Of a stretch of 64,000 nucleotides of DNA, positions 13,525 to 60,535 are shown piece after piece. Both the position numbers and the translations under genes were made by a program. Source of the DNA: an uncultured Gammaproteobacteria bacterium (GTDB lineage: Bacteria > Patescibacteriota > Microgenomatia > Levybacterales > GWA1-39-11); contig CAYRKM010000001.1 in assembly GCA_964425075.1 (NCBI GenBank), positions 705,793 through 769,792 on the forward strand, given 5' to 3'. The notes under the pieces are model-generated. The model did no database searches, had not been told where the DNA came from, and saw nothing but the letters and a program-made list of their open reading frames with translations. Each line of letters opens with the position of its first letter. Position 1 is the first letter of the stretch.

Positions 13525-13525
13525 T

Positions 13526-31915: not shown

Positions 31916-32809
31916 ATGCGCAAAGCTTGCGGACAATATCCTAAAGCGCAAGCGAAATACAATTTTAAATTTATGTTTGGAAGAGAATATTCTAATTACC
32001 CCGAAATCCTTCTTTCCTCTTTTCGGCAAATGAATTCAAAATATAAAAAAATAGGCAAGAAAAGCAATAATAATTTGCTTCAAAAAATTTATATCTACTT
32101 GTTTGGAATTCCCGAAATAGGGTTTCAAATCAGGAGCATGTATTTTAATTCTATAATAGAAAAAAAATTGGGTAGGAAGAACCTTAAAAATATTCTTGAT
32201 GCTGGAAGTGGAATAGGAACATATGCTTTTTGGCTTTCAAAAAAATATCCTAAAGCAAAAGTCACAGGTGGAGAAGTTGACGCTGAGAAAATAGAGTTTA
32301 GTAAAAGGTTTGCAAAAGAAAGAAAAATAGAAAACACAGAATTTAAGAAAATGGATATTACTAAACTTACTGGAAAGAAAGATGGATTTGATTTAATAGT
32401 AAATATTGACGTTCTAGAACATATTGATGATTATAAAAAAGTTATAGCAAATTTTAAAAAAATACTTAGTCCAAGGGGTTATCTTTTTATACACACACCC
32501 CAGCCCAACCAAAAAAGAATTTTTAAAAGCACTAGAAATTGGTCGCATGAAGACCATAAGCACGAAGGATATGAGCCGTCTGAGTTAAGAAAAACACTTG
32601 AAGACAATGGTTTTAAGGTGTTAGTTATGAAAGAGACGTTTGGATATTTTGGAAAACTTGCATGGGAACTGAATCATATGAGTTTTAAAAAAGGATTTAT
32701 AGTTGCAGGCCTTCTTTACCCGATAACTTATGTGGTCTCAAAAGCAGATCTTTTAGTTAATAATAAGGGTGGATTGGGAACAGCTCTTCTTGTTCAGAAA
32801 AAGAATTAA
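31916..32809 (+). CDS. Class I SAM-dependent methyltransferase
   Basis: 297 aa. ILDAGSGIGTYAFWL (motif I) and DLIVNIDVLEHI (motif II/III). The true start may be a downstream Met. Confidence 0.65.
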   Translation: MRKACGQYPKAQAKYNFKFMFGREYSNYPEILLSSFRQMNSKYKKIGKKSNNNLLQKIYIYLFGIPEIGFQIRSMYFNSIIEKKLGRKNLKNILDAGSGIGTYAFWLSKKYPKAKVTGGEVDAEKIEFSKRFAKERKIENTEFKKMDITKLTGKKDGFDLIVNIDVLEHIDDYKKVIANFKKILSPRGYLFIHTPQPNQKRIFKSTRNWSHEDHKHEGYEPSELRKTLEDNGFKVLVMKETFGYFGKLAWELNHMSFKKGFIVAGLLYPITYVVSKADLLVNNKGGLGTALLVQKKN

Positions 32810-34008
32810 ATATACTTTTTAAGGAAAGCTTCGAATAATTCTTCAAGTCTCTTTATGTGTTTCTTTTCCAGTCCATGATGACATCCAATAACAAATGCAT
32901 TTTTCATTATCTCATCAGTAACGGGAAACTTTTCTTTTCCACTTGCTAAACCTTTGAATGCAGGCTGGCGCAAAATATTTCCCGTAAAAACGGGTCTTGT
33001 TTGTACATTATTTTTTTCAAGGTAGGTGGTAATTTCCTTTCTGGTAAATCCAGCACCACTTTTAATTGTAAGTGGATATGCAAGCCACTGTGTTTTTATT
33101 GTTTTATCTTGTATTGGCAAAACAAATAATTTTTGGTATTTCGTGAAGAATTTGCTAAGCTCCGCAAAATTTTCCTCTCTTATTTTTCTAAATTTAGGCA
33201 ATTTTGCTAATTGTACGTTTCCAAAAGCAGAACACATCTCGTTAGGGAGTAAATTATAAGCGATTTCATCAAATATAAATTTCGCATCATAATCAATTGG
33301 TCCAATTTTGTATTTAAATCGTTTGTTAATATCTTCTGATTCGCTAAAGAGAGAAGAACTTCTTCCCCAACCTCTTAATACCTTAGCTCTGTCAGCCCAT
33401 TTTGGATTATTCACCATCAGCATTCCGCCATTACCCCCTGCTGTTATGATATGAGATCCGAAGAATGACGTTGTAGTAATGTCTGAATATTTTCCCGTTG
33501 GGTCTCCATTAATTTTGGCCCCGAGAGTATCGCAAGAATCTTCTATCAAAAAGAGTTTATATTTATTTGCAATCATTCTTAATTTTTTCATATCCGGGAC
33601 ATTTCCTAGCAAAAGCGGAATCATTAATGCTTTTGTTTTTTTTGTAATTTTTTTCTCTATGTCATCAACATTAATGATATATTTTCCAGGGACTACATCG
33701 ACAAAAACTGGCTTTAATCCGTGTTGAAGTAATGGTGCTACGGTTGTTGAAAAGGTTAGGACTGGAGTTATAACCTCAGAACCTGGTGGAAGCGAAAGCA
33801 GGGAAATGGCAATAAAATTTGCAGAAGAGCCTGAATTTACCATAATTCCATATTTTTTTGAATTGATTGCAGCTACCTTTTTTTCAAAAGTCTTAGTTTC
33901 AATTCCCATGTTGGAGCGATGCTCTTTAAGGACATTTACTACAGCTTTTATTTCTTTTTCATCGTAAACAGAAAGAGCGTAAGGAACTCGAAGTGGTGTT
34001 TGTTTCAT
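32806..34008 (-). CDS. DegT/DnrJ/EryC1-family PLP/PMP enzyme with His in place of the Schiff-base Lys: sugar 3-dehydratase type (ColD/E1-like)
   Basis: 400 aa. EDSCDTLGA and TTSFFGSHIITAGGNGG align with the SFxxxKxIT...EGG motif of sugar aminotransferases, but the Lys position is H. Confidence 0.55.
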   Translation of the reverse strand: MKQTPLRVPYALSVYDEKEIKAVVNVLKEHRSNMGIETKTFEKKVAAINSKKYGIMVNSGSSANFIAISLLSLPPGSEVITPVLTFSTTVAPLLQHGLKPVFVDVVPGKYIINVDDIEKKITKKTKALMIPLLLGNVPDMKKLRMIANKYKLFLIEDSCDTLGAKINGDPTGKYSDITTTSFFGSHIITAGGNGGMLMVNNPKWADRAKVLRGWGRSSSLFSESEDINKRFKYKIGPIDYDAKFIFDEIAYNLLPNEMCSAFGNVQLAKLPKFRKIREENFAELSKFFTKYQKLFVLPIQDKTIKTQWLAYPLTIKSGAGFTRKEITTYLEKNNVQTRPVFTGNILRQPAFKGLASGKEKFPVTDEIMKNAFVIGCHHGLEKKHIKRLEELFEAFLKKYI

Positions 34009-34089
34009 ATTGCAATTATATTAATCTTTTCCTGTAATAACAAGACATTTTACATATTTTAGAGTTTAAATATATTAGCAATTTACCTA

Positions 34090-34098
34090 TGATAAAAT
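34090..34098 (+). promoter_or_regulatory. Extended -10 element TGaTAAAAT, 7 nt upstream of ATG 34105 (possible leaderless start)
   Basis: TGnTAAAAT at 34090..34098 places the predicted TSS at the A of the ATG. The region is AT-rich, so specificity is low. Confidence 0.2.
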
Positions 34099-34104
34099 TA
34101 CACA

Positions 34105-35115
34105 ATGAAAACCCACCCCCCATTATCCATTATTATTGTTGCCCTTAACGCAGAAAGGACAATTAAGGACTGTCTTAAATATATTGAAAATCAAACATAC
34201 AAAAACATAGCGGAAGTTTTAATAGTTGATGGGGGAAGTACAGACAATACGCTTACAATAGCCAATAATTCAAACCTTCCAATCAAAATTATTAAGGGTG
34301 GGTACAAGAATAATCAGGAAGCAAGAAGATCGGTCGGATTAAAAAAGGCAAAGAATGAACTTTGTGTCTATCTAGACACCGATAATTTTATTCTTGACAA
34401 ATCGTGGCTTGAGAAAATGGTCGAACCATTAATTACTCATAAAGAAGTTATCGCTTCACAAACACTTCGATATGCGGTTCCGAAGAACACCACGTTACTA
34501 AATAGGTATTTTGGGTTGATTGGTGCAAGTGACCCAGTTGCATATTATTTAGGAAAAGACGATAGATTGAGTTGGGCGTTTGATAAGTGGAATTTAAGGG
34601 GGAAGGTTTTAAAGGATTATAAAAAATACATAATTGTAGATTTTAGACCGGACATGTATCCCACAGTAGGTTGTAATGGTATAGTTTTTAGACGCTCGAA
34701 TCTCCTTAAATCAAATTGGGGTAATCCTGAAAATTATATACACACTGACGTATTTGTTGATGTTGCAAAATTGGGATATACAAAATTTGCAATTGTAAAA
34801 AATGAGATATTTCATAATACGGCTGAGAATATTTTTACTTTTTTTCAAAAGAGGAGGAGGTACATGGGTATATATCATGGAAATCTTAATAAAAAAAGAC
34901 GCCATCTCACATTTGACCCAAAAAGTCGCAGCGATGTTTTTAGGCTTTTCCTTTTTTTGATTTTTTCCTTAACCCTTATTGAGCCTTTAGCAGAGTCAAT
35001 AAGAGGATTTATAAAAAAAAGAGACATTGCGTGGTTTCTTCATCCAATTATTTGTCTTGGTATAATGCTTGTATATTCAGAAGTAACCTTAAGGAGAGCT
35101 ATTTTTAAAAAATAA
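34105..35115 (+). CDS. GT2 family glycosyltransferase with a C-terminal TM segment; paralog of 50332..51396
   Basis: 336 aa. LSIIIVALNAERTI...IVDGGSTDNT. The C-terminal AWFLHPIICLGIMLV is shared with 50332 (AWFLHPLMCLLMVV). Confidence 0.65.
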   Translation: MKTHPPLSIIIVALNAERTIKDCLKYIENQTYKNIAEVLIVDGGSTDNTLTIANNSNLPIKIIKGGYKNNQEARRSVGLKKAKNELCVYLDTDNFILDKSWLEKMVEPLITHKEVIASQTLRYAVPKNTTLLNRYFGLIGASDPVAYYLGKDDRLSWAFDKWNLRGKVLKDYKKYIIVDFRPDMYPTVGCNGIVFRRSNLLKSNWGNPENYIHTDVFVDVAKLGYTKFAIVKNEIFHNTAENIFTFFQKRRRYMGIYHGNLNKKRRHLTFDPKSRSDVFRLFLFLIFSLTLIEPLAESIRGFIKKRDIAWFLHPIICLGIMLVYSEVTLRRAIFKK

Positions 35116-35116
35116 T

Positions 35117-35989
35117 ATGACAAAAATTTTAATTTTTGGTGGACATGGTTTTATTGGTTTGAATATTCGAGATATCTTTATGGAAAATAGTGATTTTAAA
35201 ATCATTTCACCAACATCAAAAGAATGTGATCTTTTGAATCTGAATGATGTTAAAAGGATTATTAGGAAAGAGAAACCTGAAATTATTATTAATGCCGCAT
35301 TTGTTGGTGTTAGTGCTCGCATAAAATTTTCTGCGGATTATATTTTTACCAATACAACTTTAATAACAAATATTTTGCAATCATGCATTAATCAAAAAAA
35401 CATAAAAAAAATCATTCATTTTGGTTCAGCAGCGGAGTATGGTGATTCTGAAAAATTGATTGACGAGAATTTTTCAATTGCTCCCAAAAATATTTACGCT
35501 ACGGCAAAAGCAATTTCATCTCTTGCTGCACTGCAAATGCAAAGAGAATATGATCTTCCACTAATAATAATAAGACCATTCTATCTTTATGGCCCACATA
35601 ATAATAAAGGAGTTTTGTTAGACGTAGTCAGTGCAGTTGTAAAAAACGAGACACTATCAGTAACGAAGGGGGAGCAAGCAAGAGATTATATGTACGTGAA
35701 GGATCTAGCAAAAATAATTCTTAGGATTTGCCAACAACCTGAGTTGTTTAAAAATGGAGAGATTTACAATGTTGGCACGGGTAAGGGAGTAAGGCTTAAT
35801 CAAGTCTTTAAAATAATATTTGAATTATTTAAGAAAAAACCGTCATATTCCTATAGACCTTATAATAAATATGAATATTTTCATCAAGTCGCTGATAATA
35901 AAAAAATAAATAAGATATTAAAAATGAAATATACACCAATTGCCAAAGGTATGAAAGAGACGATTAGACTATTGCAGCAAGAAAAATAG
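35117..35989 (+). CDS. NAD(P)-dependent sugar epimerase/reductase (SDR); candidate CDP-dideoxyhexose 4-reductase (RfbJ/RfbS-like) or fucose-synthase-like
   Basis: 290 aa. IFGGHGFIG Rossmann motif and catalytic YATAK. Lies directly upstream of rfbF/rfbG. Confidence 0.5.
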   Translation: MTKILIFGGHGFIGLNIRDIFMENSDFKIISPTSKECDLLNLNDVKRIIRKEKPEIIINAAFVGVSARIKFSADYIFTNTTLITNILQSCINQKNIKKIIHFGSAAEYGDSEKLIDENFSIAPKNIYATAKAISSLAALQMQREYDLPLIIIRPFYLYGPHNNKGVLLDVVSAVVKNETLSVTKGEQARDYMYVKDLAKIILRICQQPELFKNGEIYNVGTGKGVRLNQVFKIIFELFKKKPSYSYRPYNKYEYFHQVADNKKINKILKMKYTPIAKGMKETIRLLQQEK

Positions 35990-36028
35990 CGTTGCAATTA
36001 CCCTTCTTAAAGGGTATATTAAACCCAT

Positions 36029-36808
36029 ATGAAAACAGTAATATTGGCAGGTGGCTTAGGATATAGATTAAAGGAAGAAACGGAATTTAAGCCAAAACCA
36101 ATGGTCCTAATAGGTGGTAAGCCAATGCTTTGGCATATAATGAAAATATATTCTCACTATGGTTTCAATGAATTTATAATAGCACTTGGTTATAAAGGAG
36201 ACTACATAAAGCAATATTTTCTAAATCAACAACATTACGCTAACAACTTCACAATAAACACAAAAACAGGTGTCACAAAATTTCATAAAAAGGATGAAAG
36301 CATAGATAATTTCAAGATAACCTTTGTTAATACAGGTGAGGAGACACAGCCAGGAGAAAGAATATTAAAAATAAAAAAGTTTATTCCTAAAGAGGATAAG
36401 TATTTTATGGTTACATATGGTGATGGAGTGGCAGACATTAACATAAAGGAGCTTGTTAAGTTTCACAAAAAACAAAAAACAATAGGTACTGTTACGGGAG
36501 TCCACCCAGGTTCTAGCAGATATGGTCTTTTGAAAGAGAATAGTAAAAATATAGTTACAGAGTTTGCAGAAAAGCCTATGGTGAAAGAAACAGTGAATGG
36601 AGGTTTTATGGTTTTTGATAAAAAAATATTTAATTTCATAAAAGAGGGGGAATTGGAACATGAAGCTCTTAAAAGACTCATCAAAATATCTCAACTTTCT
36701 GTTTTTAAGCACAGTGGATTTTGGCATTGCATGGATACATATCGCGATGTAGACGATCTTAACAAGTTATGGATTGAAGACCCCAAGTGGAAGTTATGGC
36801 GGGATTAA
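36029..36808 (+). CDS. rfbF: Glucose-1-phosphate cytidylyltransferase
   Basis: 259 aa. ILAGGLGYRLKEETEFKPKPMVLIGGKPMLWHIMKIYSHYG closely matches RfbF/DdhA. Confidence 0.8.
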   Translation: MKTVILAGGLGYRLKEETEFKPKPMVLIGGKPMLWHIMKIYSHYGFNEFIIALGYKGDYIKQYFLNQQHYANNFTINTKTGVTKFHKKDESIDNFKITFVNTGEETQPGERILKIKKFIPKEDKYFMVTYGDGVADINIKELVKFHKKQKTIGTVTGVHPGSSRYGLLKENSKNIVTEFAEKPMVKETVNGGFMVFDKKIFNFIKEGELEHEALKRLIKISQLSVFKHSGFWHCMDTYRDVDDLNKLWIEDPKWKLWRD

Positions 36809-37749
36809 CAAAACAAACTGTCCTTGTTACCGGTGGAACCGGATTTATTGGAAGTCATTTATCTTTAGCTTTAGCCAAAGCTGGATTTTCTGTAGTTGTA
36901 TTGGATATTGCAGTTAATCCTAATTCCTTTTTCTCGGTTGAAAAAATATATAGCTCCGTAATATTTGAGCTTTGTGATATTCGTGATAAAGATGCTGTCT
37001 TTAATATAGTACAAAAACACTCTCCAGACTATATTTTTCATCTTGCTGCAGAACCCATTGTGGAGAAAGCATTCGAGAATCCCTATTCTGCATTTGAGAC
37101 TAACATAATGGGTACGGTCAATGTCTTGGAGGCAGCACGTGGAAATGAAAATATAAAAGGTATTATCGTGACCTCCTCAGATAAAGCATACGGCAAAACT
37201 TTAAAAGCTTACACAGAAAACTCTGCTCTAAAGGGAGACCATCCATACGATGTTTCAAAATCAGCGCAGGATTTGATATCTCAAACATATTTTAAGACAT
37301 ACAATATGCCAATTGTAATAACACGCTTCGGTAATGTATATGGAGAGGGAGACATTCACCTAAACAGAATAATTCCTGGAATTTGTGAAGCGGTCATTAA
37401 AAATAAAACGCTTCAAATTAGAAGTAATGGAAAATATGTAAGAGATTATTTGTATGTTGGGGATGTTATTGCTGGATGTTTAGTGCTTTTAGAAAAATTT
37501 GAGAACAATATTGGGGAAGCATTTAATTTTTCATCAAGTGAGGGAATGAATGTCATTCAGGTCGTAAGATTAGCAGAAAAAGTTCTTGACAGAAAAATTC
37601 CTTTTAAAATTCTTGATATTGCCAAAAATGAAATTCCATATCAGCATCTTGATGACAAAAAAATTCGTAGGTTGGGTTTTAAGAATAAAGATAATTTTGC
37701 AAGCACTTTCCCAAAAATTATTACCTGGTACAGAAAAATTATTACTTAA
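36787..37749 (+). CDS. rfbG: CDP-glucose 4,6-dehydratase
   Basis: VTGGTGFIGSHLSLAL, CDIRD, IFHLAAEPIVEKAFENPYSAFETNIMGTVNVLEAAR and NIKGIIVTSSDKAYG align with RfbG/DdhB. The likely start is Met at 36796. Confidence 0.7.
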   Translation: MEVMAGLTKQTVLVTGGTGFIGSHLSLALAKAGFSVVVLDIAVNPNSFFSVEKIYSSVIFELCDIRDKDAVFNIVQKHSPDYIFHLAAEPIVEKAFENPYSAFETNIMGTVNVLEAARGNENIKGIIVTSSDKAYGKTLKAYTENSALKGDHPYDVSKSAQDLISQTYFKTYNMPIVITRFGNVYGEGDIHLNRIIPGICEAVIKNKTLQIRSNGKYVRDYLYVGDVIAGCLVLLEKFENNIGEAFNFSSSEGMNVIQVVRLAEKVLDRKIPFKILDIAKNEIPYQHLDDKKIRRLGFKNKDNFASTFPKIITWYRKIIT

Positions 37750-37813: not shown

Positions 37814-38836
37814 ATGGCAAAAAACGGATTAGTTAAAAATGGTTTGAAAGGACAAAAAAAGACAGCCTTAGTCTTGGGTGCAGGAGGTTTTATAGGAGGT
37901 CATTTAGTAAAAAGACTTAAGAAAGAAGGATTTTGGGTTAGGGGAGTTGATATTAAAAAACCAGAATATAGTGAGACTTTGGCTGACGAGTTTTATCTTG
38001 GAGACTTAAGAGATCAAGTTGTTTTTGCAAAAATAATGGATAAGCCATTTGATGAAGTTTATCAACTTGCAGCAGATATGGGAGGGGCTGGATATATTTT
38101 TTCAGGAGAACACGATGCAGACGTAATGCATAATTCTGCACAAATTAATTTAAACGCACTTCATTATGGTAGAAAGGCAAAAATCAAAAAAATATTCTTT
38201 TCCTCATCAGCCTGTATCTATCCAGAGCATAACCAATTAGATCCTGACAATCCAACAACCTCTGAGGAATCTGCATATCCTGCAGCTCCAGATAGTGAGT
38301 ATGGGTGGGAAAAATTATTCACAGAACGAATGTTTCTTGCGTACCACAGAAACTACGGAATGGAAGTTCGCATAGCAAGGTTCCACAACATTTTTGGTCC
38401 TGAAGGGGCATGGAATAATGGGAAAGAGAAGTCGCCTGCAGCAATTTGTAGAAAAATTGCACAAGCATCAAACGGAGGAACAATTGAAATGTGGGGGGAC
38501 GGAGAACAAACTAGGTCTTATCTTTATATAGATGAATGTTTGGAGGGAGTAAGGCGACTTATGAACTCGAATTTTACAGGACCCGTCAATATTGGGTCTG
38601 AGGAAATGGTAAGTATCAATAAGCTTGCCGAAACTGTTATGAAAATAGCCGGGAAGAAATTAAAAATAAAACACATAGAAGGCCCTCTGGGGGTTAGAGG
38701 TAGAAATTCAGACAATAAATTAATTGAAGAAAAATTGAAATGGAAACCAACAGCTCCACTTGCTGATGGTTTGAAGGAGACTTACGCCTGGATTGCTGCA
38801 CAAGTTGCGAAATCTGCGAAGTACATTCAAATATGA
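37814..38836 (+). CDS. GDP-mannose 3,5-epimerase homolog (GME family SDR)
   Basis: 340 aa. AADMGGAGYIFSGEHDADVMHNSAQINLNAL...FFSSSACIYPE, ARFHNIFGPEGAWNNGKEKSPAAICRK, MWGDGEQTRSYLYIDECLEGVRRLM and GPLGVRGRNSDNKLIEEKLKW are near-identical in pattern to plant GME. Confidence 0.7.
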   Translation: MAKNGLVKNGLKGQKKTALVLGAGGFIGGHLVKRLKKEGFWVRGVDIKKPEYSETLADEFYLGDLRDQVVFAKIMDKPFDEVYQLAADMGGAGYIFSGEHDADVMHNSAQINLNALHYGRKAKIKKIFFSSSACIYPEHNQLDPDNPTTSEESAYPAAPDSEYGWEKLFTERMFLAYHRNYGMEVRIARFHNIFGPEGAWNNGKEKSPAAICRKIAQASNGGTIEMWGDGEQTRSYLYIDECLEGVRRLMNSNFTGPVNIGSEEMVSINKLAETVMKIAGKKLKIKHIEGPLGVRGRNSDNKLIEEKLKWKPTAPLADGLKETYAWIAAQVAKSAKYIQI

Positions 38837-39657
38837 TAAGGAATCTGGTTATTGGATCTGCCGGATTCATAGGTAGGCCTTTTTGTAGGTACCTTGAGTA
38901 TAAAGGTGAAGAAGTAGTAACTTTCGACATCAAGAGCGAAAAATCACAGGACGGTAGAATATTTAATTTTGATTTCACAGAAATTGATAGGATATATTTC
39001 CTCGCATGGGATGTAGGAGGTTCTAAATATCTATACGAGTCAAAGCTCCAATTGTCACAGCTGAAATGGAATTTACAGTTGATGACTAACATTTTTGAAC
39101 ATCTTGAGAAACAAAAAAAGGATTTCCTTTTTGTTTCCAGTCAATTAGCCGAGGAAACAGATACTGTTTATGGGGTTACTAAAAAATTAGGGGAAGTTTG
39201 GACGAAAGAGTTAGGTGGGGCATGTATTAGAGTTTGGAATGCCTATGGATATATGGAACCATCAGACATCAAGAGCCATGTTATTTCCGATTTTATTTAT
39301 CAAGCGCTTGAAACCGGGAAAATAAAAATGATGACTGATGGAAGTGAATGGCGACAATTTACGCATATTGAAGATTTATCTCGTGCTTTTCATGGGGCAC
39401 TAACTTTGAAAAACCGAAAACGAACGATTTATGATGCGAGTAGCTATGAATGGGTAAGAATAATTGATGTTGCACAAATTATTGCAGATATAACTGGTGC
39501 AAAAATTATTCCAGGAGATAAAAAGGGGCATGATCCTCTTCCGTCTCAAAATTGCGGAAGAGTTCCCGGTTGGCTTCCTGAAATATCATTAGCGGACGGA
39601 ATTTCTCAAATGATTGATGAGGCAAAAGGAAAAATAAAGAATGCCAGAAAAAAGTAA
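38833..39657 (+). CDS. Short SDR-family NDP-sugar epimerase/reductase, translationally coupled to the GME homolog
   Basis: 274 aa. GSAGFIG Rossmann motif and YGVTK catalytic dyad. ATGA overlap with 37814..38836. Confidence 0.45.
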   Translation: MIRNLVIGSAGFIGRPFCRYLEYKGEEVVTFDIKSEKSQDGRIFNFDFTEIDRIYFLAWDVGGSKYLYESKLQLSQLKWNLQLMTNIFEHLEKQKKDFLFVSSQLAEETDTVYGVTKKLGEVWTKELGGACIRVWNAYGYMEPSDIKSHVISDFIYQALETGKIKMMTDGSEWRQFTHIEDLSRAFHGALTLKNRKRTIYDASSYEWVRIIDVAQIIADITGAKIIPGDKKGHDPLPSQNCGRVPGWLPEISLADGISQMIDEAKGKIKNARKK

Positions 39658-40891
39658 ATTCTCCCTTAACAAGAATTCCTCAGTATTATTTGTAACCTTT
39701 TCTAGGTGGGATGGTGATGTGCGTTCTCCAACTACTGGAAGTCTTGATCCGCTTAGAGATTTTTTGGTCCCAAAAATTAGAAAACTTTCAATAATTGACC
39801 AAGTACATCCAAGTGGAGATGGAGTGATGCCTGTTATTGAAGAATATAAAAACCAAAAAATAAAGGGCAAACAATATCACTCATCGTGGTGGATGTATAT
39901 TTTAAAGCCATGGTTATCTTTGCCTCATACTAACCCAAACGGGACATACGTGAGATTTAAGATCAGAGACTTCTTGTCAGTAATTGATTGGTCCTTTAGG
40001 GAAAAAACTCCTTACGACTACTGTATTTGCCTTGAAAGCATTAATACTCTTGCTGCAATACTTTTAAAAAAAATGGGTAGAGTGAAGTGTGTTGTGTATT
40101 ATGTTTCTGACTATTCTCCAAGCAGGTATCCACAAAAATGGTTTAATAATTTATACCTTGCGCTTGATAGATTTTGCGCAACACATGCAGACTTTATTTG
40201 GGATGTTTCTCCCGCAATGCAAAAGGCTAGAATTAGTGAGGGAGGGCTTGATTCAGCAAAATCAGCGCCAGTTATTCATGTTCCAAATGGTTTACACCCA
40301 GGGCAAATCAAGGCAGAACCAATTTCAAAAATTGATAAACAAGCACTTGTATATATGGGAACAGTTGGAGCAGAAAATGGTCCGGATGTGGCAATAAAGT
40401 CTTTAGCAATAGTTAAGAAAAGTTTTCCGAAGGCAAATCTTCATTTGGTTGGAGGAACAGAGAAAGATTTAGTTTGGTTAAAAAGGATTGCTAAAAAGCT
40501 GGGAATTGAAAAGTCAGTGACATTCCATGGTTTTGTTAAGGATGGATTCGAAATGTCAAAAATTATAAGAAAGTGCGCTGTGGGATTAGCACCCTACAGA
40601 GCAATACCAGGTTCTATTCGCTATTATGCAGATGCAGGAAAAATAAGAAATTATTGCGCTGCTGGTCTTCCAACAGTAAGTTCGCAAGTCCCACCCCTGG
40701 GACTTTTTGTTGCTGAAAAAGGGGCAGCAGTGATTGCTAAAGATAACGCTCAGAGTTTTGCTAAAGCCATAATAAATATTTTTAAAAATAAGAAGACTTA
40801 CGAGAGCTTAAGGAGAAATGCTATAATTTTGGCTAGGAATAACACATGGGAAAATTCATTTAAAAATGCATTTAAAATTATGTCAAAGTAA
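39641..40891 (+). CDS. GT-B glycosyltransferase (GT4-like)
   Basis: 416 aa. N-terminal domain followed by a LHLVGGTEKD...GFVKDG...GLAPYRAIPGS C-terminal Rossmann domain. Confidence 0.5.
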   Translation: MPEKSKFSLNKNSSVLFVTFSRWDGDVRSPTTGSLDPLRDFLVPKIRKLSIIDQVHPSGDGVMPVIEEYKNQKIKGKQYHSSWWMYILKPWLSLPHTNPNGTYVRFKIRDFLSVIDWSFREKTPYDYCICLESINTLAAILLKKMGRVKCVVYYVSDYSPSRYPQKWFNNLYLALDRFCATHADFIWDVSPAMQKARISEGGLDSAKSAPVIHVPNGLHPGQIKAEPISKIDKQALVYMGTVGAENGPDVAIKSLAIVKKSFPKANLHLVGGTEKDLVWLKRIAKKLGIEKSVTFHGFVKDGFEMSKIIRKCAVGLAPYRAIPGSIRYYADAGKIRNYCAAGLPTVSSQVPPLGLFVAEKGAAVIAKDNAQSFAKAIINIFKNKKTYESLRRNAIILARNNTWENSFKNAFKIMSK

Positions 40892-41787
40892 TGAATAAAA
40901 ATAACAAAAAAAGCAAGCAACATTTTGATTATGATGAAGTCTTTATGGGTGTCTTTAAAGATAGACCTAAGGGATTTCATAAAAATATTTATAATCAGAA
41001 ACCAGAACTGAGGCGAGTTGTTGAAATGGTTAAAGTGAAAAAAGGTAAAATCCTAGATATTGGCTGTGGAGGAGGACTAATTACAGAATGTTTGCCTTTT
41101 TATTACCCGAAAGCCAACATCTATGGGTGTGATGTAAGCACTACGGCCATAAAATATGCAAAAGAATACGGAGTTGGAAAAGTAAGTTACAAAGTAATGC
41201 AAAAAAGATTGCCCTACCCATCAAACTATTTTGAAGCAGCAGTTTGTCTTGATGTTATGGAACATATTCCAGACGTAGACTTTTTCTTAAGGGAAGTAAG
41301 GAGGGTTCTAAAGAAAGATGGAGTGTTTTTTGCCGCAATTCCATGTGAAGGGCAACCATTCACTTTTACATGGCTTTTTGAAAAACTTGGATTTTGGCAG
41401 AATTTAACATTTAAACACGTGGGGCATATACATCCAGAATTTACACACAAATATATAGTGGATTTATTTCAGAAGCATGGTTTTACCGTTCTTAGAAAAA
41501 GTTTTAGTGAAAGAATCGTAGTTCAACTGCTTAGATATACGCAATTTATGTTGCCAAAAGAGTTGCTAGAGGTTTTTGTTGGAAAAAAGAAGGCAGAAAA
41601 ATATTATGATAGAAGCGTTTTAAAACAAAAAGAAAATGCAAAAAAAGATCTTATAATGCTTTTGCGAATTATTTGGTTTAAAATCTGTAAGATAACTAAA
41701 TTCATTGATGATTTTGATGCCGAAAAATTGAGAAATATTAGTTTTACGGCATGGAAAATAAATATTCTAGTTAAAAATAAGAAGTAA
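40891..41787 (+). CDS. Class I SAM-dependent methyltransferase
   Basis: 298 aa. ILDIGCGGGLITECL (motif I) and CLDVMEHIPDVD. Confidence 0.65.
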   Translation: MNKNNKKSKQHFDYDEVFMGVFKDRPKGFHKNIYNQKPELRRVVEMVKVKKGKILDIGCGGGLITECLPFYYPKANIYGCDVSTTAIKYAKEYGVGKVSYKVMQKRLPYPSNYFEAAVCLDVMEHIPDVDFFLREVRRVLKKDGVFFAAIPCEGQPFTFTWLFEKLGFWQNLTFKHVGHIHPEFTHKYIVDLFQKHGFTVLRKSFSERIVVQLLRYTQFMLPKELLEVFVGKKKAEKYYDRSVLKQKENAKKDLIMLLRIIWFKICKITKFIDDFDAEKLRNISFTAWKINILVKNKK

Positions 41788-41798: not shown

Positions 41799-44700
41799 AT
41801 GCAGTTTATTAAAAAAAACCACTTTTTCTTTGAGATTGCATTTATTGTTCTTTTAAGTCTTATACCCCTCATCTGGTTCTCTCCACAACATATGATTTTT
41901 GGTAGTGATTCGGGTTATCCATTGGATTATGTTCAGTATTTTATTCAAAGAACCTATACTTGGACATCTGCCCAGAGCTTCGGTGAAGACATGTCGACAT
42001 TTATGGGAGCATTGCCACTCCATGGAATTCAGTTCGTTCTATCCATTCTAGGAATACCGTATTTTGATATCCAAAAAGTAACTTTAGTGTTTTGGTTTGC
42101 TTCGATCGCCTTTGCAATGTATTTCTGTGTAAAGTATTTTTTTAACAAACCTGAGCATTGGCCGATAAGACTAATATCTGTTGTTCTTTACTCTATCAAT
42201 TTTTACATCTTCCTTTTTTGGACAATAGGTTCTCAAACTACTTTAAGCGCTTATGTATTGTTACCGCTCAGTTTTCTTATTGTATTCATGTTTATAGATA
42301 AGAAAATCTCTCCCATACTTGCCGCAGTTTGTTTTAACTTATCCTACTTAGTTTTTAATGCAGGAGGAATAGGTGGAGTACCGCTTTTAGGTCCTGTTGC
42401 CGTAACCATTTTGAGTGGAATAATTTACCAGTCTATATTCACATTCAACAAAGAGTTCTTTGTGAGAGTACTAAGTCTTCTATTTTTTTCATTTATAATC
42501 TTTCTTGGATTAAATGCCTACTTTCTTTTTCCTTTTCTTTCTTCATTTGCTCAGCAGTTTAATACCCTGGTCGTAAAAAGTGGTGGTATTGATGGAGTTA
42601 TCGAATGGACAAATTTTATAAGCAAGTACGATAGTTATGCAAATCTGTTTAGACTACAGGGGGATAATATTTGGTATACGACGGAAAAAACATATGCTAC
42701 GCCGTATCTTAATAACCCAATCCTTATTTTAGCTAGTTTCAGTTTTCCAATACTTGCTTATTTTGTTCTATTTTTTAAATTAGAATATCGGATAAAAAAA
42801 CTTGTTTATTTTTTAATTACCATTTCATTGGTTGGGATTTTTTTATCAGCAGGTTCTCATGATCCATTGGGCTTTTTATATGAGTTAATGCTTAGGTTTA
42901 TCCCTGGATTTGCAGCATTTAGATCAGCTTTCTATAAATTTATGCCGTTGGTTCTTCTGCCCTTTTCAATCCTTATTGCAATGTCAATTTACATGATTTC
43001 ACAAAAAATTAGAATGTCTTATAGATTTTTAATCCCTATTATATTTATTTCATCTATTTTCGTTTATCACTATCCATTTTTTAATGTAGGAAATTTTTTG
43101 ACAAATAACACATTCAGCACAATGATTAAGATTCCAAATTACGTTACCAAATTTGTTGAAGAAAAACCTCCGCCAAATGATCAGTATCGAACTTTGGTTT
43201 TACCTCCATTTGACGATAACTATGCTATTGAGGCATACAAATGGAGTTATTTTAGTGGATATCCAATATTTCCGGGCGTTAGTAATAAGTCATTTATAGA
43301 GAACAATGCTTATTTAAATACTAATGAAGGAATTTTGGTGAACAGGCTTTACAAATTATTACGCAACGAAGAATATGATTTGTTTGTCGAAGAAGCATCA
43401 AGATTAAGTATTAGATATGTCCTTTTAACATCAGATGTCCATACCGAGATTACACCTCGTGAGGATCCTAAATTTTATCAAAGTAAATTGAAAACTAGCT
43501 ATTTTAAACCCGTTTGGAGCAATGGCCCATGGAGTATTTATGAAATTAACAGACCAACTAATTCAAAATTTCATGCATTTAGTGCCCTTACGTCATTTAA
43601 TGGAGAAAATCTTGAGGTACTTCCAATTCTCCCAGCCGGCAATAACAAATTTATTGAAAAAACAAAACAACATCCATCAAGTTCTTTAAATAGTGCAATA
43701 GATTCTATCAAATGTTCGTCTTGTATTTCTGTTGACAATGAGGACTTAGTTGCGGAACCACCAATTATTTTACCCAACTCCATATTTTACTCAATAAAGC
43801 TTTCTCGTGAAAGCAAAATAAATCCAAACCCATCAACAAATCAAGCAATTTACGATTTATTGGGAAGATCTCAAATAAGACTTTCTGAATTAAGAGGATT
43901 ATCTCAAATTCCAGAGATAAACGATGAAAATTGGTTTAAATCTATAGGTTTATTGACATCTAACTGGGCAACGATTTCAAGGATTCAAGATGAAAATACA
44001 GCAAATGATCTTTATCTTTTTAATAAATTAGAGAATTATAGTCATTTTCAGATAACCAATCTTAAGGAAATTTATTTTTACGAACCAGTTGGCAAAAGTA
44101 AAAAAATGGGAGGCTTGATAAGAGAGGCAATTGCAATGATCGAGAAAGTTCAGATAAAAAATGAAAGTAATATACAGAAAACAGAGAGTGGAAATATGTT
44201 TACATATAATATTGATTCTTTAACTCTTTTACAGAAGTCAAATCTAATTGTTGATCATGTTAGCCTTATGAAAAATGAGAATGGCGGTGTGATTTATCCG
44301 AATGCAATTAAATTTGATAATAACGAACCATTAAGTATTTATGCACAAAATGACACTAAGGACATTGTTATTCCAATACCCAAGATAAATCCAATCAAGA
44401 AAATCACTTTGTTTTTTCCGGAGAAAGAAAATAAATTTGTCTTTCCACGAGAAAAAGTTATCAACTCATCCTTTTTCAAGAAGGAAAGCTGCATTACTGG
44501 AGACATTAAAGACTTCAAATGGTATAAGACGTATCGCGTTACTTCAAAAATTGTTGGTAGTCCCGATAACCTGCATGTTTATATTACAAATATTTCAGCG
44601 GAAAAGCCCGATGCTGAAATATTTAAACCCGACAGGATAATTGACATTGATAAAGCAAGCATTAGGTATTTACATGTTGACATTCAAGGACGAGAAAACA

Positions 44701-45179
44701 CAACAGCTGTTCAGATTTATTTTTGTGCTGATCCTGGTAGAAATCCTTTTGGAGCATATCTAGATACAAGGGTAGAGGAAGTTTACACACCAATTATGTA
44801 TATAAAAAGTGATTTAAGAGAGAGCAACAAAATTGTTCCCAAGATTAGTTACAAAACAGTTACTCCAACAGAATACAGAATCAAAATTAATAATGCATCA
44901 ACACCGTATTTTCTTGGATTTTCAGAAAGATATTCTGACTTTTGGGAATTAAAAGATTTATCAACGGGTAAGGTAATAGAGGCTAAACATTTTACTCTTA
45001 ATGGTTATGCGAATGGATGGCTAATAACAAGAAAGGGCACATATGAGCTTGTATTAAAATTCACTCAACAGAGTATATTTAATACTGGATTTAAAATAAG
45101 CATAATATCTATATTATTAGTTGTTTTTTACTTAATAAGTAAGATTAGGAGTAAAAAAAATAAAAATGGAAAAATTTAA
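41799..45179 (+). CDS. Giant polytopic membrane protein (1126 aa): N-terminal multi-TM GT-C-like domain, extracytoplasmic domain of about 600 aa, C-terminal TM anchor
   Basis: SDSGYPLDY acidic motif after TM1, then 12 or more TM segments to about residue 440, then a long hydrophilic region. The C-terminus FSERYSDFWELKD...GTYELVLKF plus a TM helix is paralogous to the C-terminus of 52621..54612. Confidence 0.5.
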   Translation: MQFIKKNHFFFEIAFIVLLSLIPLIWFSPQHMIFGSDSGYPLDYVQYFIQRTYTWTSAQSFGEDMSTFMGALPLHGIQFVLSILGIPYFDIQKVTLVFWFASIAFAMYFCVKYFFNKPEHWPIRLISVVLYSINFYIFLFWTIGSQTTLSAYVLLPLSFLIVFMFIDKKISPILAAVCFNLSYLVFNAGGIGGVPLLGPVAVTILSGIIYQSIFTFNKEFFVRVLSLLFFSFIIFLGLNAYFLFPFLSSFAQQFNTLVVKSGGIDGVIEWTNFISKYDSYANLFRLQGDNIWYTTEKTYATPYLNNPILILASFSFPILAYFVLFFKLEYRIKKLVYFLITISLVGIFLSAGSHDPLGFLYELMLRFIPGFAAFRSAFYKFMPLVLLPFSILIAMSIYMISQKIRMSYRFLIPIIFISSIFVYHYPFFNVGNFLTNNTFSTMIKIPNYVTKFVEEKPPPNDQYRTLVLPPFDDNYAIEAYKWSYFSGYPIFPGVSNKSFIENNAYLNTNEGILVNRLYKLLRNEEYDLFVEEASRLSIRYVLLTSDVHTEITPREDPKFYQSKLKTSYFKPVWSNGPWSIYEINRPTNSKFHAFSALTSFNGENLEVLPILPAGNNKFIEKTKQHPSSSLNSAIDSIKCSSCISVDNEDLVAEPPIILPNSIFYSIKLSRESKINPNPSTNQAIYDLLGRSQIRLSELRGLSQIPEINDENWFKSIGLLTSNWATISRIQDENTANDLYLFNKLENYSHFQITNLKEIYFYEPVGKSKKMGGLIREAIAMIEKVQIKNESNIQKTESGNMFTYNIDSLTLLQKSNLIVDHVSLMKNENGGVIYPNAIKFDNNEPLSIYAQNDTKDIVIPIPKINPIKKITLFFPEKENKFVFPREKVINSSFFKKESCITGDIKDFKWYKTYRVTSKIVGSPDNLHVYITNISAEKPDAEIFKPDRIIDIDKASIRYLHVDIQGRENTTAVQIYFCADPGRNPFGAYLDTRVEEVYTPIMYIKSDLRESNKIVPKISYKTVTPTEYRIKINNASTPYFLGFSERYSDFWELKDLSTGKVIEAKHFTLNGYANGWLITRKGTYELVLKFTQQSIFNTGFKISIISILLVVFYLISKIRSKKNKNGKI

Positions 45180-56008: not shown

Positions 56009-56714
56009 TTGAAGGTGCATTTTTTACTCCATACAAAAACCACTTAAAATAACTTGGAAGCCACTTCAAAAGTTTGAATTTTGATGTTCCATGTATTCTT
56101 TCTTTCCAAACAGTGGGAACTTCATCAATTTTGTAACCCAATCTATATGCCTTAACAGTTAACTCAAGAGGGAGTTCGAACCCGCCAGTGCTTTCAATTT
56201 TTATATCTTTAAGAATTTCTCTTCTAAAACATTTAAACGCATTTGTTGCGTCTAATGTATTAATTCCTGAAAAGCGATTTAGAAGAGTACTTCCTATCCT
56301 TGAAAGCCCGCCTTTTATTTTCGGACCGCCAACTCTTTTCCCTCCACGGCTATATCGAGAACCTGAAACAAAATCTGCACCAGAATCAAGTTTTTTTACC
56401 ATTTTATCTACGTCTTTTGGATTATCTGAAAGATCTGCCATCATAATACAAACATATTCAGTTTGGGATTCTTCAAGACCCGTTTTTAGAGCCTTAATAA
56501 CACCAATCCCATACTTATTTTTAACAAGTCTTATATCTTTGTTCCCTTTGCCCCATTTCTTAATAGCATTAATTGTTGGGTCAGTATTTGTGTCATAGAT
56601 AAAATTTATAATGTAGGGCGTTTTGACATAAGAAGTAATACCCTTTAGCAAAGGAGGAATATTTGCTGCCTCATTGAAGACAGGTATAACGAATGTAAGT
56701 TTCTTTTTTTTCAC
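55989..56714 (-). CDS. GT2, polyprenyl-phosphate sugar synthase type (Ppm/ArnC-like)
   Basis: 241 aa. LTFVIPVFNEAANIPPLL...MMADLSDNP. Last gene of a three-gene minus-strand operon. Confidence 0.65.
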   Translation of the reverse strand: MKKKKLTFVIPVFNEAANIPPLLKGITSYVKTPYIINFIYDTNTDPTINAIKKWGKGNKDIRLVKNKYGIGVIKALKTGLEESQTEYVCIMMADLSDNPKDVDKMVKKLDSGADFVSGSRYSRGGKRVGGPKIKGGLSRIGSTLLNRFSGINTLDATNAFKCFRREILKDIKIESTGGFELPLELTVKAYRLGYKIDEVPTVWKERIHGTSKFKLLKWLPSYFKWFLYGVKNAPSTNPQKS

Positions 56715-57970
56715 TAGTCAGAATTAATTCGATATATAATTTTATTTTTCCCTAAAACATTCCAAATATCACACACTAAGCAATTTTTTTTGACCAACCT
56801 TTTAATTTTATTAATATTTAACTTTCTATAGTCCTTATGATTTGTAGCAATAAAGATTAAATCAGCGTCTTTAAGTGCTTCATATGGGTCTTGAATAATT
56901 TCCTGATTTGCATAGCTTTTGACATATGGGTCATGAAGAGTTAATTTTGCTCTTTCGCGAAGCAGTGCTTTTCTAACTTTAAAGCTTAATGACTCTCTAA
57001 TATCATCAATCTCCGATTTGAATGAGAGCCCCAAGATTACAGCTTTTTTGCCATCTAGCTTCATGCGTTCACGTATAAGTTTTACTAGGAGAAGTGGAAT
57101 TGATTCATTGATTTTCCAACTTGTTGTAATCAAGTCAATATATGGAATATCTGAGATTAAAAAGAATCCATCTTTAAAAAGGCAAGGTCCACCAGTAAGC
57201 CCTGGCACGGTTAGTCCTCCGCGTTTGTACTTATAATTTACAAGATTCACAATTTCATAGATATCCCGATGGTAATTTTGTGCAAGCAGCATAAATTCAT
57301 TTGCAATCGCAAAATTAATATAGCGATACATATTCGTAAAAAGTTTTGCAAGTTCTGCAGATGTGTCATCAGTAAGTAGGGTTTGAACGCCCATTTTTTT
57401 AAAAATTTCCTCTGCCTTTTTTGCGCTTTTCTTATCAACTCCACCAATAATTTGTGGGATTTCACGCATTTCGTCCAAAGAATTTCCTTCGGCAATTCTT
57501 TCGGGGCAGAATGCAATATAAAAGTTTTTTCCGGCAATTAAATTTGCTTTTTCTTCTATTAAAGATTTAACAAATTGAGTTGTTCTTGGAGAGACAGTAC
57601 TTCTTAGAATGAGTGTTTGATTCGGTTGTAAGTAGCTCATTGCAGAGGTCAGTGCTTGATTGATTTGGTCAAGAATTGGGTTCATATTCTCATCAACGGG
57701 CGTTCCAAGGGTTAGTATAACGTAGCTACATTCTGAAATTACCGAATAATCTGTTGTAAAATTCAAACTTTTTTTTATATTTTTGCGAAGTAATTGGGTT
57801 GCGCCTTTTTCCATAAAGGGCATTTTTCCACGCAATAGATTACTTATCTTTTCCTCATTCTTACCAACTCCATATACCATGTATCCTAATTCCGACAAGA
57901 ATAAAGCCAGCGGAAGCCCAACTCTCCCAATCCCTATAACTGCAATTGATTCTTTTTGTTTACTCTCCAT
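56714..57970 (-). CDS. Nucleotide-sugar 6-dehydrogenase (UDP-glucose/UDP-ManNAc/UDP-GlcNAc dehydrogenase family)
   Basis: 418 aa. N-terminal IAVIGIGRVGLPLALFL Rossmann motif, central GGPCLFKD catalytic-Cys motif and a C-terminal UDP-binding domain. Confidence 0.7.
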   Translation of the reverse strand: MESKQKESIAVIGIGRVGLPLALFLSELGYMVYGVGKNEEKISNLLRGKMPFMEKGATQLLRKNIKKSLNFTTDYSVISECSYVILTLGTPVDENMNPILDQINQALTSAMSYLQPNQTLILRSTVSPRTTQFVKSLIEEKANLIAGKNFYIAFCPERIAEGNSLDEMREIPQIIGGVDKKSAKKAEEIFKKMGVQTLLTDDTSAELAKLFTNMYRYINFAIANEFMLLAQNYHRDIYEIVNLVNYKYKRGGLTVPGLTGGPCLFKDGFFLISDIPYIDLITTSWKINESIPLLLVKLIRERMKLDGKKAVILGLSFKSEIDDIRESLSFKVRKALLRERAKLTLHDPYVKSYANQEIIQDPYEALKDADLIFIATNHKDYRKLNINKIKRLVKKNCLVCDIWNVLGKNKIIYRINSD

Positions 57971-57971
57971 T

Positions 57972-58919
57972 TTAAAGTTTTGTTAGCCAATTTATCGTTT
58001 CTGGTAGTCCTTCATCTAGCTTAATTTTGGCGCTCCAGCCTAGCATCTCTTTCATTTTTGAAACATCAGGAATTCTATTTTTTACATCAGACCTAAATGG
58101 CTTAACGTGCTTTACCTTAAATGTTTTTGTATTGCCTGAAATTTCCCAAATTTTCTTTGCAAGTTCAAGCATTGTAATGGGTTCATTGTTTGCTATGTTA
58201 AAGTCGTTATTTAATGCTTTTTCACTTTCCATCGTCTTGATTATGCCCTCAGCAAGGTCTTTTACATGAGTAAAACATCTGACTTGATTTCCGTCCCCCA
58301 AAAGCTCAAGAGGATATTGGTCTGATAAAATTTTTTTTGCGAGATCTGGAATTACATGGGCATAGCCTATTTCCTTTTCGGGATATTCATTTATTCCATA
58401 AGCGTTAAATGGTCTACAAATGGTGTAATTTAAGCCAAATTCTTCAAAAAAAGCTTTGCAATATTGCTCACCAATAAGTTTGGAAAAACCATACGAGGTA
58501 ATAGGAGGAAGAGTGGTGTTAATATCTTTTTCAGCTGATGGAAATTTGGTTGCACTCTCAAAAACCATTGATGAGGAAATATATATTATTCTTTCAATCT
58601 TATTTTTGACTGATGCCTCAAAGACTGCAGAATACATTTTGTTGTTTTCGGAGAGAATCGTTGCGGGGTATTTATGAAAATATCCAATCCCCCCAATTTT
58701 CGCAGCCAAATGGATGCAGATATCCATTCCTTCAAGTGCCTTGTTGGCATTCAACTTATCCGTTAAGTCCAAATTTATAAACTCAGACGAATATAGTGGC
58801 TTTTTGTTGTGTTTGCTTAAGTTGTCTACAACTCTTACAAAATATCCTTTTTCAAGAAGTTGCCTTACAATTTCTTGTCCAATGAAGCCTGCACCCCCTG
58901 TTACGACAATCTTTTTCAT
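57972..58919 (-). CDS. NAD-dependent NDP-sugar epimerase/dehydratase (SDR)
   Basis: 315 aa. VTGGAGFIG and catalytic YGFSK. The HLAAKIGGIGY motif is reminiscent of the GME AADMGG motif. Confidence 0.6.
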   Translation of the reverse strand: MKKIVVTGGAGFIGQEIVRQLLEKGYFVRVVDNLSKHNKKPLYSSEFINLDLTDKLNANKALEGMDICIHLAAKIGGIGYFHKYPATILSENNKMYSAVFEASVKNKIERIIYISSSMVFESATKFPSAEKDINTTLPPITSYGFSKLIGEQYCKAFFEEFGLNYTICRPFNAYGINEYPEKEIGYAHVIPDLAKKILSDQYPLELLGDGNQVRCFTHVKDLAEGIIKTMESEKALNNDFNIANNEPITMLELAKKIWEISGNTKTFKVKHVKPFRSDVKNRIPDVSKMKEMLGWSAKIKLDEGLPETINWLTKL

Positions 58920-59989: not shown

Positions 59990-60535
59990 ATGAGCAAAAT
60001 TATTGGTATCGATATCAGCCAACTCGCGTACGAAAACACTGGAGTTGCCAATTACTTAGAAAATTTAGTTATAAACCTTATTGAGCAAGATGAGAAAAAT
60101 GAATACGTATTGTTTTTCTCTTCACTAAGAGGAAAAGTTTCCAAAAAGATTGCTTTACTTTCTGCAAAGCAAAATGTGCGGATAAAAACATTTCGATTTC
60201 CACCTTATGCGCTTAATTTTTTATGGAATCAAGTTCACACACTTCCAATTGACACATTAATCGGAAAAGTGGATTTTTTTCTTACCTCAGACTGGACTGA
60301 GCCACCCTTAAGGTCAGGAATTAAAGCAACTATTTTATATGACTTAATTGTTTATAAATACCCTCAAGAGACTGCTGCAAAAATTGTTGACGTTCAAAAA
60401 AAGAAACTTAAATGGGTGAAGAAAGAAAGTAATTTTGTTTTTTGCATTTCAGAGGCTACAAAAAAGGATGCTGAGGATTTGCTTAAAATTGATCCCAAAA
60501 AACTTCATGTAATTTATCCCGGTTTAACTTTGTAA
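59990..60535 (+). pseudogene. GT4 N-terminal-domain-only ORF (181 aa); probable truncated paralog of 60617..61738
   Basis: Starts MSKIIGIDIS like the downstream MSKIIAIDAN gene and the GT4 at 26365. Ends right after the VIYPGLTL N-domain boundary, with no C-terminal Rossmann domain. Confidence 0.4.

Follow-up and report, generated by a model that had tools for sequence, protein, structure and literature searches.

Two overlapping genes that encode short-chain dehydrogenase/reductase (SDR) enzymes lie near the middle of the window analysed here, a 64-kb stretch of contig CAYRKM010000001.1 (positions 705,793 to 769,792). The first open reading frame, ORF1 (37814–38836, plus strand), encodes a 340-aa enzyme of the GDP-mannose 3,5-epimerase family (GM35E, or GME), as assigned by a phmmer search of the PDB, and matches Pfam PF01370 (151 bits). 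The second, ORF2 (38833–39657, plus strand), encodes a 274-aa NAD-type extended SDR without the catalytic-Cys loop, hereafter the mini-SDR (Pfam PF01370 at 76 bits, hhalign and Foldseek). The junction reads AAATATGATAAG, in which the ATG of ORF2 overlaps the TGA of ORF1; the ATGA coupling of ORF1 to a short SDR reported in a preliminary description of this DNA is thus a real overlap of 4 nt.

ORF1 had been called a GME in that description from a list of motifs, and each of them was found in the protein: AADMGG (residue 86), SSSACIYPE (130), RFHNIFGP (189), (S)PAAICRK (208), MWGDGEQTRS (226), IDECLEGV (239) and GVRGRNSDN (293). The extended-SDR fold is represented by the Gly-rich NAD motif GAGGFIG at residues 22–28, and PF01370 spans residues 18–261. 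When all PDB chains were searched with ORF1 by phmmer, Arabidopsis GME (AtGME, 2c59) matched query residues 19–334 at E=6.3e-98. Four Arabidopsis GME entries were retrieved at E=6e-98 to 4e-97 (~330 bits), and the enzyme of Myrciaria dubia (8sg0) at E=1.2e-95. The best match outside the GME family was a UDP-glucuronate decarboxylase at E=6.4e-29, and GalE-type structures gave E≥1e-23. In bits, ORF1 scores 331.6 to AtGME and at most 104.8 to any other SDR class; the gap in E-value between AtGME and the next class is 70 orders of magnitude. The preliminary description had allowed that CDP-paratose 2-epimerase or generic UDP-sugar epimerases might turn out to be the best matches, which is not what the search returned.

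The identity of ORF1 to AtGME is about 51–52% (52% over 311 aligned columns). Among 38 diverse representatives of the family, whose median is 43%, ORF1 (51%) ranks third in this respect. Identity to AtGME is 58% in the substrate-binding half and 45% in the NAD-binding half. Since the substrate-binding half is the better conserved of the two, nothing points to a changed nucleotide specificity of ORF1, and recognition of the guanine nucleotide is indirectly supported.

The residues that set GM35Es apart from GalE, CDP-paratose 2-epimerase (CPa2E) and GDP-fucose synthase (GMER) are, in AtGME numbering, the triad S143/Y174/K178, the pair C145/K217, and R306, R243 and N203 (PMC8787198). In AtGME, C145 and K217 serve both C3 and C5 epimerisation, R306 acidifies the Cys and R243 sits on the diphosphate, whereas GMER has a Cys/His pair with a Lys, and a pair of this kind is missing from GalE and CPa2E (PMC8787198). 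In the HMMER alignment, S132, Y163 and K167 of ORF1 fall on the catalytic triad Ser143/Tyr174/Lys178, C134 and K206 on the acid-base pair Cys145/Lys217, and R297, R234 and N192 on Arg306, Arg243 and Asn203, so that all eight defining residues are conserved. The GME call made earlier is therefore borne out both by the E-value to AtGME and by formal alignment of the catalytic residues. The exact signature SCYKNKRR occurs in 26 of the 38 family representatives; the Tyr and Lys of the triad are invariant (38/38), and the counts for the Cys and for the catalytic Lys are 34 each.

One could argue that ORF1 is a generic UDP-sugar 4-epimerase, a CPa2E or a GDP-fucose synthase whose likeness to GME is superficial, given that its close homologues carry generic epimerase names and that its best NCBIfam match is the GDP-L-fucose synthase model NF047922. 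This match, however, stays at 106 bits where 500 are required, and the GalE model TIGR01179 at 78 where 262 are. The phmmer scores separate GME structures (331 bits) from all others (≤105 bits), and ORF1 carries the Cys/Lys pair and the Arg that are specific to GM35Es (PMC8787198). We consider such an identity of ORF1 highly improbable. As individual candidates, GDP-L-fucose synthase was rejected on the NF047922 score and on Lys206 and Arg297, which stand where that enzyme has its Cys/His-with-Lys set, and CPa2E and UDP-glucose 4-epimerase were rejected on the presence of the Cys/Lys pair and on the TIGR01179 score. Annotation of GM35Es as GalE or GMER is a common error (PMC8787198). Judged by its sequence, ORF1 is a bona fide and ordinary bacterial member of the GM35E family.

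AtGME (PDB 2C54, 2C59, 2C5A and 2C5E) and ORF1 share the extended-SDR architecture, the triad, the Cys/Lys pair, the Cys-acidifying Arg, the diphosphate Arg and the Asn. They differ in the Gly motif, which is GxxGxxG (GAGGFIG) in ORF1 and GxxGxxA in AtGME, in length (340 against 377 aa, ORF1 being shorter at both termini) and in setting, which is a bacterial surface-glycan operon for ORF1 and the ascorbate and cell-wall pathway for AtGME. The only biochemically characterised bacterial GM35E, described in 2019, is MfGM35E of Methylacidiphilum fumariolicum, which is 50.5% identical to AtGME (PMC6678494). ORF1 is about as close to AtGME (52%) as MfGM35E is, a likeness of the two bacterial enzymes that is read from these figures. 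The MfGM35E gene, as ORF1, lies beside a glycosyltransferase gene with a methyltransferase gene nearby, and a role in surface polysaccharide synthesis has been proposed for it (PMC6678494). Its source is a verrucomicrobial thermophile, and no partner SDR of the ORF2 type has been reported next to it. Further homologues are known from actinomycetes, namely BlmG, which is implicated in providing the L-gulose of bleomycin, and the GME of the A201A pathway (PMC6678494, PMC8787198). In both cases a dedicated glycosyltransferase receives the L-gulose or L-galactose, and the setting is a secondary-metabolite cluster and not a cell-surface locus; BlmG is only 42% identical to AtGME. The enzyme that follows GME in the A201A pathway is a GDP-L-galactose mutase and not an SDR.

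The ORF2 family, which has no characterised homologue, is the less ordinary part of the pair. A search with ORF2 gave 549 matches, of which the top 120 are 62–80% identical to it and almost all 264–286 aa long; the names of its relatives in public sources are generic only. Searches of the PDB (sequence and profile), Pfam and NCBIfam returned generic SDR matches and no specific family. The best PDB matches reached E=7e-7 with the single sequence and 3e-9 with a profile, and they were scattered over UXS, UDP-GlcA 4-epimerases, MoeE5 and GME. An AlphaFold2 model of ORF2 (pLDDT 88.5, pTM 0.86) was compared with known structures by Foldseek, and the top matches were all nucleotide-sugar SDRs (E ~1e-17, TM 0.7–0.8, 17–24% identity). 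In profile-profile comparison by hhalign, the ORF2 family aligned to the GME family over 271 columns with a probability of 99.6%, E=7e-25 and 26% identity, with a deletion of ~21 residues in ORF2 that covers the loop bearing the GME catalytic Cys.

Invariant in the ORF2 family are G8-S-x-G11-x-I13-G14, D32, S103, Y113, K117, N136, K147-S-H149 and R174. In the hhalign alignment, N136 and R174 correspond to N203 and R243 of AtGME, and the invariant His149 stands opposite the catalytic Lys of GME, at the position of the His in GDP-fucose synthase. The Cys-acidifying Arg (R297 of ORF1) aligns to L236, in a column outside the invariant and near-invariant set of the family. ORF2 thus has the Gly motif, the Ser/Tyr/Lys triad, the diphosphate Arg and the two-domain fold of a nucleotide-sugar extended SDR, and of the GM35E features both the catalytic Cys and the acidifying Arg are lost. 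Since it lacks the catalytic Cys, ORF2 is not a GM35E and cannot be a second 3,5-epimerase. The invariant Asp32 lies at the end of beta-2; in the established SDR classification, an Asp at this place marks a preference for NAD over NADP.

Compared with GMER/Fcl, UXS, UDP-GlcA 4-epimerase, MoeE5, TunA and GalE, ORF2 has the same fold, Gly-rich motif, S/Y/K triad and diphosphate Arg, and it is 30–60 residues shorter and 17–24% identical. The Ser-to-Tyr spacing is ~10 residues, as against 31 in ORF1 (S132 to Y163), because the loop that holds the catalytic Cys of GME and GMER is deleted. GMER uses NADPH and in this differs from ORF2 with its NAD-type Asp32. ORF2 looks like a GME-derived paralogue, a distant relative that lost the Cys loop, and its residue inventory has the look of a redox-neutral NAD-dependent nucleotide-sugar enzyme from a GME-like ancestor.

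Downstream of ORF2, on the plus strand, lie a gene for a glycosyltransferase of family 4 (GT4; 39641–40891, Glycos_transf_1 at 66 bits), whose start overlaps the end of ORF2 by 17 nt, an abutting gene for an S-adenosylmethionine-dependent methyltransferase (40891–41787, Pfam Methyltransf_11/23/25) and a gene for an 1126-aa protein with a hydrophobic N-terminal region (41799–45179), orthologues of which lie downstream of the module in relatives. From ORF1 to the last of these genes, the junctions are overlaps of 4, 17 and 1 nt and then a gap of 11 nt. No terminator-like site was found between the genes; the single plus-strand match (40686–40705) is inside the GT4 gene, and promoter- and terminator-like matches occurred at a frequency no higher than in shuffled sequence. 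No PDB relative was found by sequence for the GT4 protein or for the 1126-aa protein, and the latter, which looks polytopic, has no Pfam match either. The genes for GME, the mini-SDR, GT4, the methyltransferase and the large membrane protein probably form one co-transcribed module, in which GT4 is the probable transferase for a GDP-L-sugar and the methyltransferase (40891–41787) has a possible role in O-methylation of the glycan. We also weighed whether ORF1 and ORF2 had been acquired horizontally and set the idea aside; the GC content at third codon positions of both genes is typical of the locus.

The order of these genes is conserved. In all 12 independent informative loci, a GME gene lies directly upstream of the ORF2 orthologue, which supports the functional link between ORF1 and the short SDR that the preliminary description had supposed. 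Among the genome loci, the six closest (L002, L003, L004, L022, L024 and L028) have GME followed by an ORF2 orthologue (>420 bits) and then by a GT4 orthologue, and orthologues of the 1126-aa protein (1154–1171 aa, 447–528 bits) come after the module in L003, L004, L022 and L028. A metagenome scan with ORF2 gave four loci, and look-ups of contigs with the exact proteins added more. In the loci retrieved with ORF2 as the query (L082, L083, L084, L086 and the P0238 contig), the gene just upstream is a GME, and the two often share the 4-nt overlap seen in the window; L083 is identical to L087 and L088. The upstream genes of L082, L083/L087/L088, L084 and L086 score 511–524 bits against the GME profile and have the full catalytic signature, and the 329-aa upstream gene of the P0238 contig is taken as the JGI-named GME homologue P0103, which is recorded on a contig of equal length. 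GT4 orthologues (470–630 bits) come directly after ORF2 in L002, L003, L004, L022, L024, L028, L084, L085 and the P0238 contig. Since L083 has no GT4, GME and ORF2 are the minimal unit. A methyltransferase orthologue (471 bits) occupies the same position in L002, and other methyltransferases fill that slot in L022, L028, L084, L086 and the P0238 contig. A distant clade of mini-SDRs (~287 aa, 176–190 bits against the ORF2 profile, with SSQ and K-x-H-V-I motifs in common) is encoded 0.5–3 kb from GME in L008, L012 and L013. Among 23 long GME-containing proteins, no fusion of ORF2 to GME was found.

This gene order bears on the idea that ORF2 works ahead of ORF1, as an NDP-glucose 2-epimerase similar to CDP-tyvelose 2-epimerase that would be the source of the manno-configured substrate in a bacterium whose central metabolism is reduced. 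Such chemistry needs only the triad, which ORF2 has kept while the Cys/Lys pair is gone, the window has no manC or manB, and a CPa2E is able to turn GDP-glucose into GDP-mannose (PMC8787198). Against it, ORF2 is always 3′ of GME and 5′ of GT4 (L083 being without GT4), most GME-ORF2 loci have no nucleotidyltransferase that could provide GDP- or CDP-glucose, and the PDB and NCBIfam searches gave no specific likeness to CPa2E. We regard this order of action as very unlikely.

We consider it likely that ORF1 is a functional GM35E that heads the module and that ORF2 acts on the GME product before transfer of the sugar by GT4. By homology, GDP-mannose would be drawn from the general pool of the cell. 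The tightly bound NAD+ of ORF1 would oxidise C4 of GDP-D-mannose, the acid-base pair Cys134/Lys206 would invert C5 and C3, with Arg297 acidifying the Cys, and C4 would then be reduced back. To judge from the ratio of about 80:15:5 that characterised enzymes give, the equilibrium of ORF1 would be unfavourable, and a coupled consumer would be needed. This role would fall to ORF2, which may modify a GDP-L-sugar via oxidation at C4 and in this way draw off the disfavoured GME products. That its reaction is a further epimerisation of GDP-L-galactose or GDP-L-gulose is a tentative proposal; a reaction of the dehydratase or decarboxylase type is possible as well. Transfer of the sugar would then fall to GT4, with possible decoration by the methyltransferase, and a later step of assembly may involve the 1126-aa membrane protein. 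From the context, it is plausible that L-galactose or L-gulose is present in the surface glycan.

A more far-reaching version, which we put forward only as speculation, is that GME and the mini-SDR are a dedicated two-enzyme route, so far mainly of Patescibacteria (the candidate phyla radiation, CPR), to an undescribed activated L-hexose. The product of ORF2 might, for example, be epimeric at C4 or C2, such as GDP-L-glucose, GDP-L-talose or GDP-L-idose, or else be a 4-keto or deoxy derivative, to be installed by GT4 and the 1126-aa protein, and ORF2 would represent a new functional class of minimal nucleotide-sugar SDR that arose when a GME lost its Cys loop. We found no literature that deals with GDP-L-galactose together with Patescibacteria.

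Several observations weigh against a GDP-mannose-based module of this kind. NCBIfam contains no GM35E model, so there is no curated cutoff for ORF1, and the nearest solved relatives of ORF2, at ~20% identity, span decarboxylases, 4-epimerases, dehydratases and epimerase-reductases. A Pfam scan of 53 of the 58 listed window ORFs of at least 120 aa (the other five, antisense or embedded, were excluded) revealed neither manC nor manB in the 64 kb. A cassette of CDP-hexose genes (32806–37749) lies immediately upstream of the GME module, and RfbF-like genes recur near GME in L006 and L008. The first gene of the cassette, on the minus strand, is RfbH-like and scores 339 bits where the cutoff is 423. 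It is followed by a GT2 gene, a gene for a 290-aa SDR, an RfbF-like glucose-1-phosphate cytidylyltransferase gene (36029–36808; 276 bits, cutoff 300) and a gene similar to CDP-glucose 4,6-dehydratase (196 bits, cutoff 278). The RfbF-like protein is the only nucleotidyltransferase of the window, and the earlier statement that no GDP-mannose pyrophosphorylase is present there agrees with the scan.

From these facts one may suppose that ORF1 is a 3,5-epimerase of GME fold for another nucleotide sugar, such as the CDP-hexose of the RfbF/RfbG-like cassette, a GDP-heptose or GDP-mannuronate. The RfbF-like and dehydratase-like genes come just before ORF1 on its own strand, those of the RfbF type in L006 and L008 are within 3 kb of GME, domains similar to UDP-glucose/GDP-mannose dehydrogenase are fused to GME in two proteins (P0243 and P0331), genes for a GmhA-like SIS protein and a HAD phosphatase precede GME in L086, and manC is absent from the window. 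However, the GME-ORF2 pair has no RfbF or RfbG neighbour in L002, L003, L004, L022, L024, L028 and L082–L084, and none of the six closest loci has RfbF- or RfbG-like genes adjacent. Since these genes are absent beside the module in those loci, the CDP-hexose cassette is a neighbour and not a partner. Also, the 4-keto-6-deoxy product of RfbG needs no enzyme that oxidises C4 itself. The well-conserved substrate-binding half of ORF1 retains the diphosphate Arg and the catalytic residues on the sugar side, and ORF1 matches AtGME as closely as MfGM35E does, a validated GDP-mannose enzyme. A substrate other than GDP-mannose is, in our view, improbable. A role of ORF2 as an RfbS/RfbJ-like 4-reductase of the neighbouring CDP-deoxyhexose cassette was likewise rejected; ORF2 tracks GME and not RfbF/RfbG, and it has the NAD-type Asp.

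No weight can be given to the missing manC, which the preliminary description had singled out, because a guanylyltransferase gene, candidates included, lies within 10 kb of GME in at most ~5 of ~72 comparable loci; the genes for GDP-mannose supply are normally located away from GME. The nucleotidyltransferases near GME in these loci are RmlA (four), RfbF-like (two), ambiguous short proteins (three) and fusions with an exosortase (two). GDP-mannose presumably is supplied from elsewhere in the genome, and ORF1 would act on it as a GM35E in the manner proposed above. As for the exosortase fusions, a locus labelled Planctomycetota (L041) encodes, ~1 kb downstream of GME (11930–13915), a 661-aa protein in which a nucleotidyltransferase-like N-terminus that resembles mannose-1-phosphate guanylyltransferase is joined to an exosortase of the XrtD/EpsH-like kind, and an ORF of the same size is found at the same position in L047 (12350–14335).

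GM35Es had been described as uncommon in bacteria, a view that does not hold. A word-indexed search gave at least 8000 proteins similar to ORF1 at E<1e-20, the best 120 of which are all 74–82% identical to it, several being from Patescibacteria. A HMMER search of 1.84 billion cluster representatives gave 992 clusters (50% identity) with E≤1e-30, and close relatives were found in at least 423 species-representative genomes (one genome per species). The best 80 of these genomes, with proteins 67–82% identical to ORF1, include CPR groups (Gottesman-, Magasanik-, Roizman- and Nomurabacteria, Saccharibacteria and Paceibacterota), Planctomycetota, Bacteroidota, Nitrospinota, Acidobacteriota, Omnitrophota and Marinimicrobia, as well as the cultured Proteobacteria Kordiimonas aestuarii, Phaeovulum vinaykumarii and Geomesophilobacter sediminis. 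In public sources the close homologues are mostly named “NAD-dependent epimerase/dehydratase” or “nucleoside-diphosphate-sugar epimerase”. The GM35E family is widespread in bacteria, across many phyla and especially in Patescibacteria.

Four of the loci with the GME/ORF2/GT4 module of the window (L002, L004, L024 and L028) are titled “uncultured Gammaproteobacteria bacterium”, and the same module is carried by a Gottesmanbacteria metagenome-assembled genome (L003). Either these four bins bear wrong taxonomic labels or the module was recently transferred, and the same question of labels or transfer is raised by the 67–82% identity of GME across many phyla. Six GME homologues (P0252, P0287, P0293, P0305, P0307 and P0381) are split by insertions of ~300–380 aa at differing positions, with both flanks matching ORF1; the insertions look like inteins in a sugar epimerase. 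In P0243 and P0331, the UDP-glucose/GDP-mannose dehydrogenase-like domain is N-terminal to GME, a hint that some clades may handle GDP-uronic acids. In P0241, the GME domain is fused to a C-terminal NodZ-like fucosyltransferase domain, which fits use of L-galactose, since fucosyltransferases accept GDP-L-galactose (PMC8787198). In L086 (1688–4869), split transketolase-like genes and genes for a GmhA-like SIS isomerase and a GmhB-like HAD phosphatase come directly before the GME-ORF2 pair, which makes a link to a heptose or other phosphosugar pathway possible.

The 64-kb window as a whole is a single glycan-assembly region, almost wholly on the plus strand. Its source is a bacterium of low GC content that, to judge from relatives of these proteins, probably belongs to the Patescibacteria. 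Two proteins of the YfhO family, five or more PMT_2-like GT-C enzymes, ~10 GT2 and ~8 GT4 enzymes are encoded there, together with a Polysacc_synt flippase, methyltransferases, hexapeptide acyltransferases, a gene of the UDP-glucose/GDP-mannose dehydrogenase family and several SDRs; ten window ORFs have no Pfam match, and most of them look like hydrophobic membrane proteins. The dehydrogenase-family gene is followed by a gene for a 315-aa SDR (56714–58919, minus strand, 18 kb from ORF1), which is the next most GME-like of the window SDRs (~90–120 bits to GME-domain proteins); together they possibly form a system for decarboxylation or 4-epimerisation of UDP-GlcA. At 59990–61738, a 181-aa ORF with the N-terminal GT4 domain only (Glyco_transf_4) is separated by 81 bp from a full-length GT4 gene, and the two may be a split or degenerate glycosyltransferase. 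The RfbH-like protein of the CDP-hexose cassette reads SFFGSHIITAGG, with a His at what we take to be the position of the PLP-binding Lys of DegT-type aminotransferases, which would fit an E1/ColD-type 3-dehydrase; the window showed no E3 (RfbI-like) reductase.

High-confidence GM35Es that public sources leave unnamed or name generically are encoded in hundreds of bacterial genomes, of which many are CPR, and the present assignment has its value mainly for their annotation. Since so many GM35Es are unnamed and only one bacterial enzyme has been characterised, L-galactose and L-gulose may be commoner bacterial surface sugars than the literature suggests. There is also a demand for GM35Es as L-sugar biocatalysts. 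The more useful lead is ORF2, a compact SDR strictly linked to GME and without a characterised relative. If it does make another GDP-L-hexose, this would be a new nucleotide-sugar activity and a new route to a rare sugar, and it would inform the cell-envelope chemistry of uncultivated Patescibacteria.

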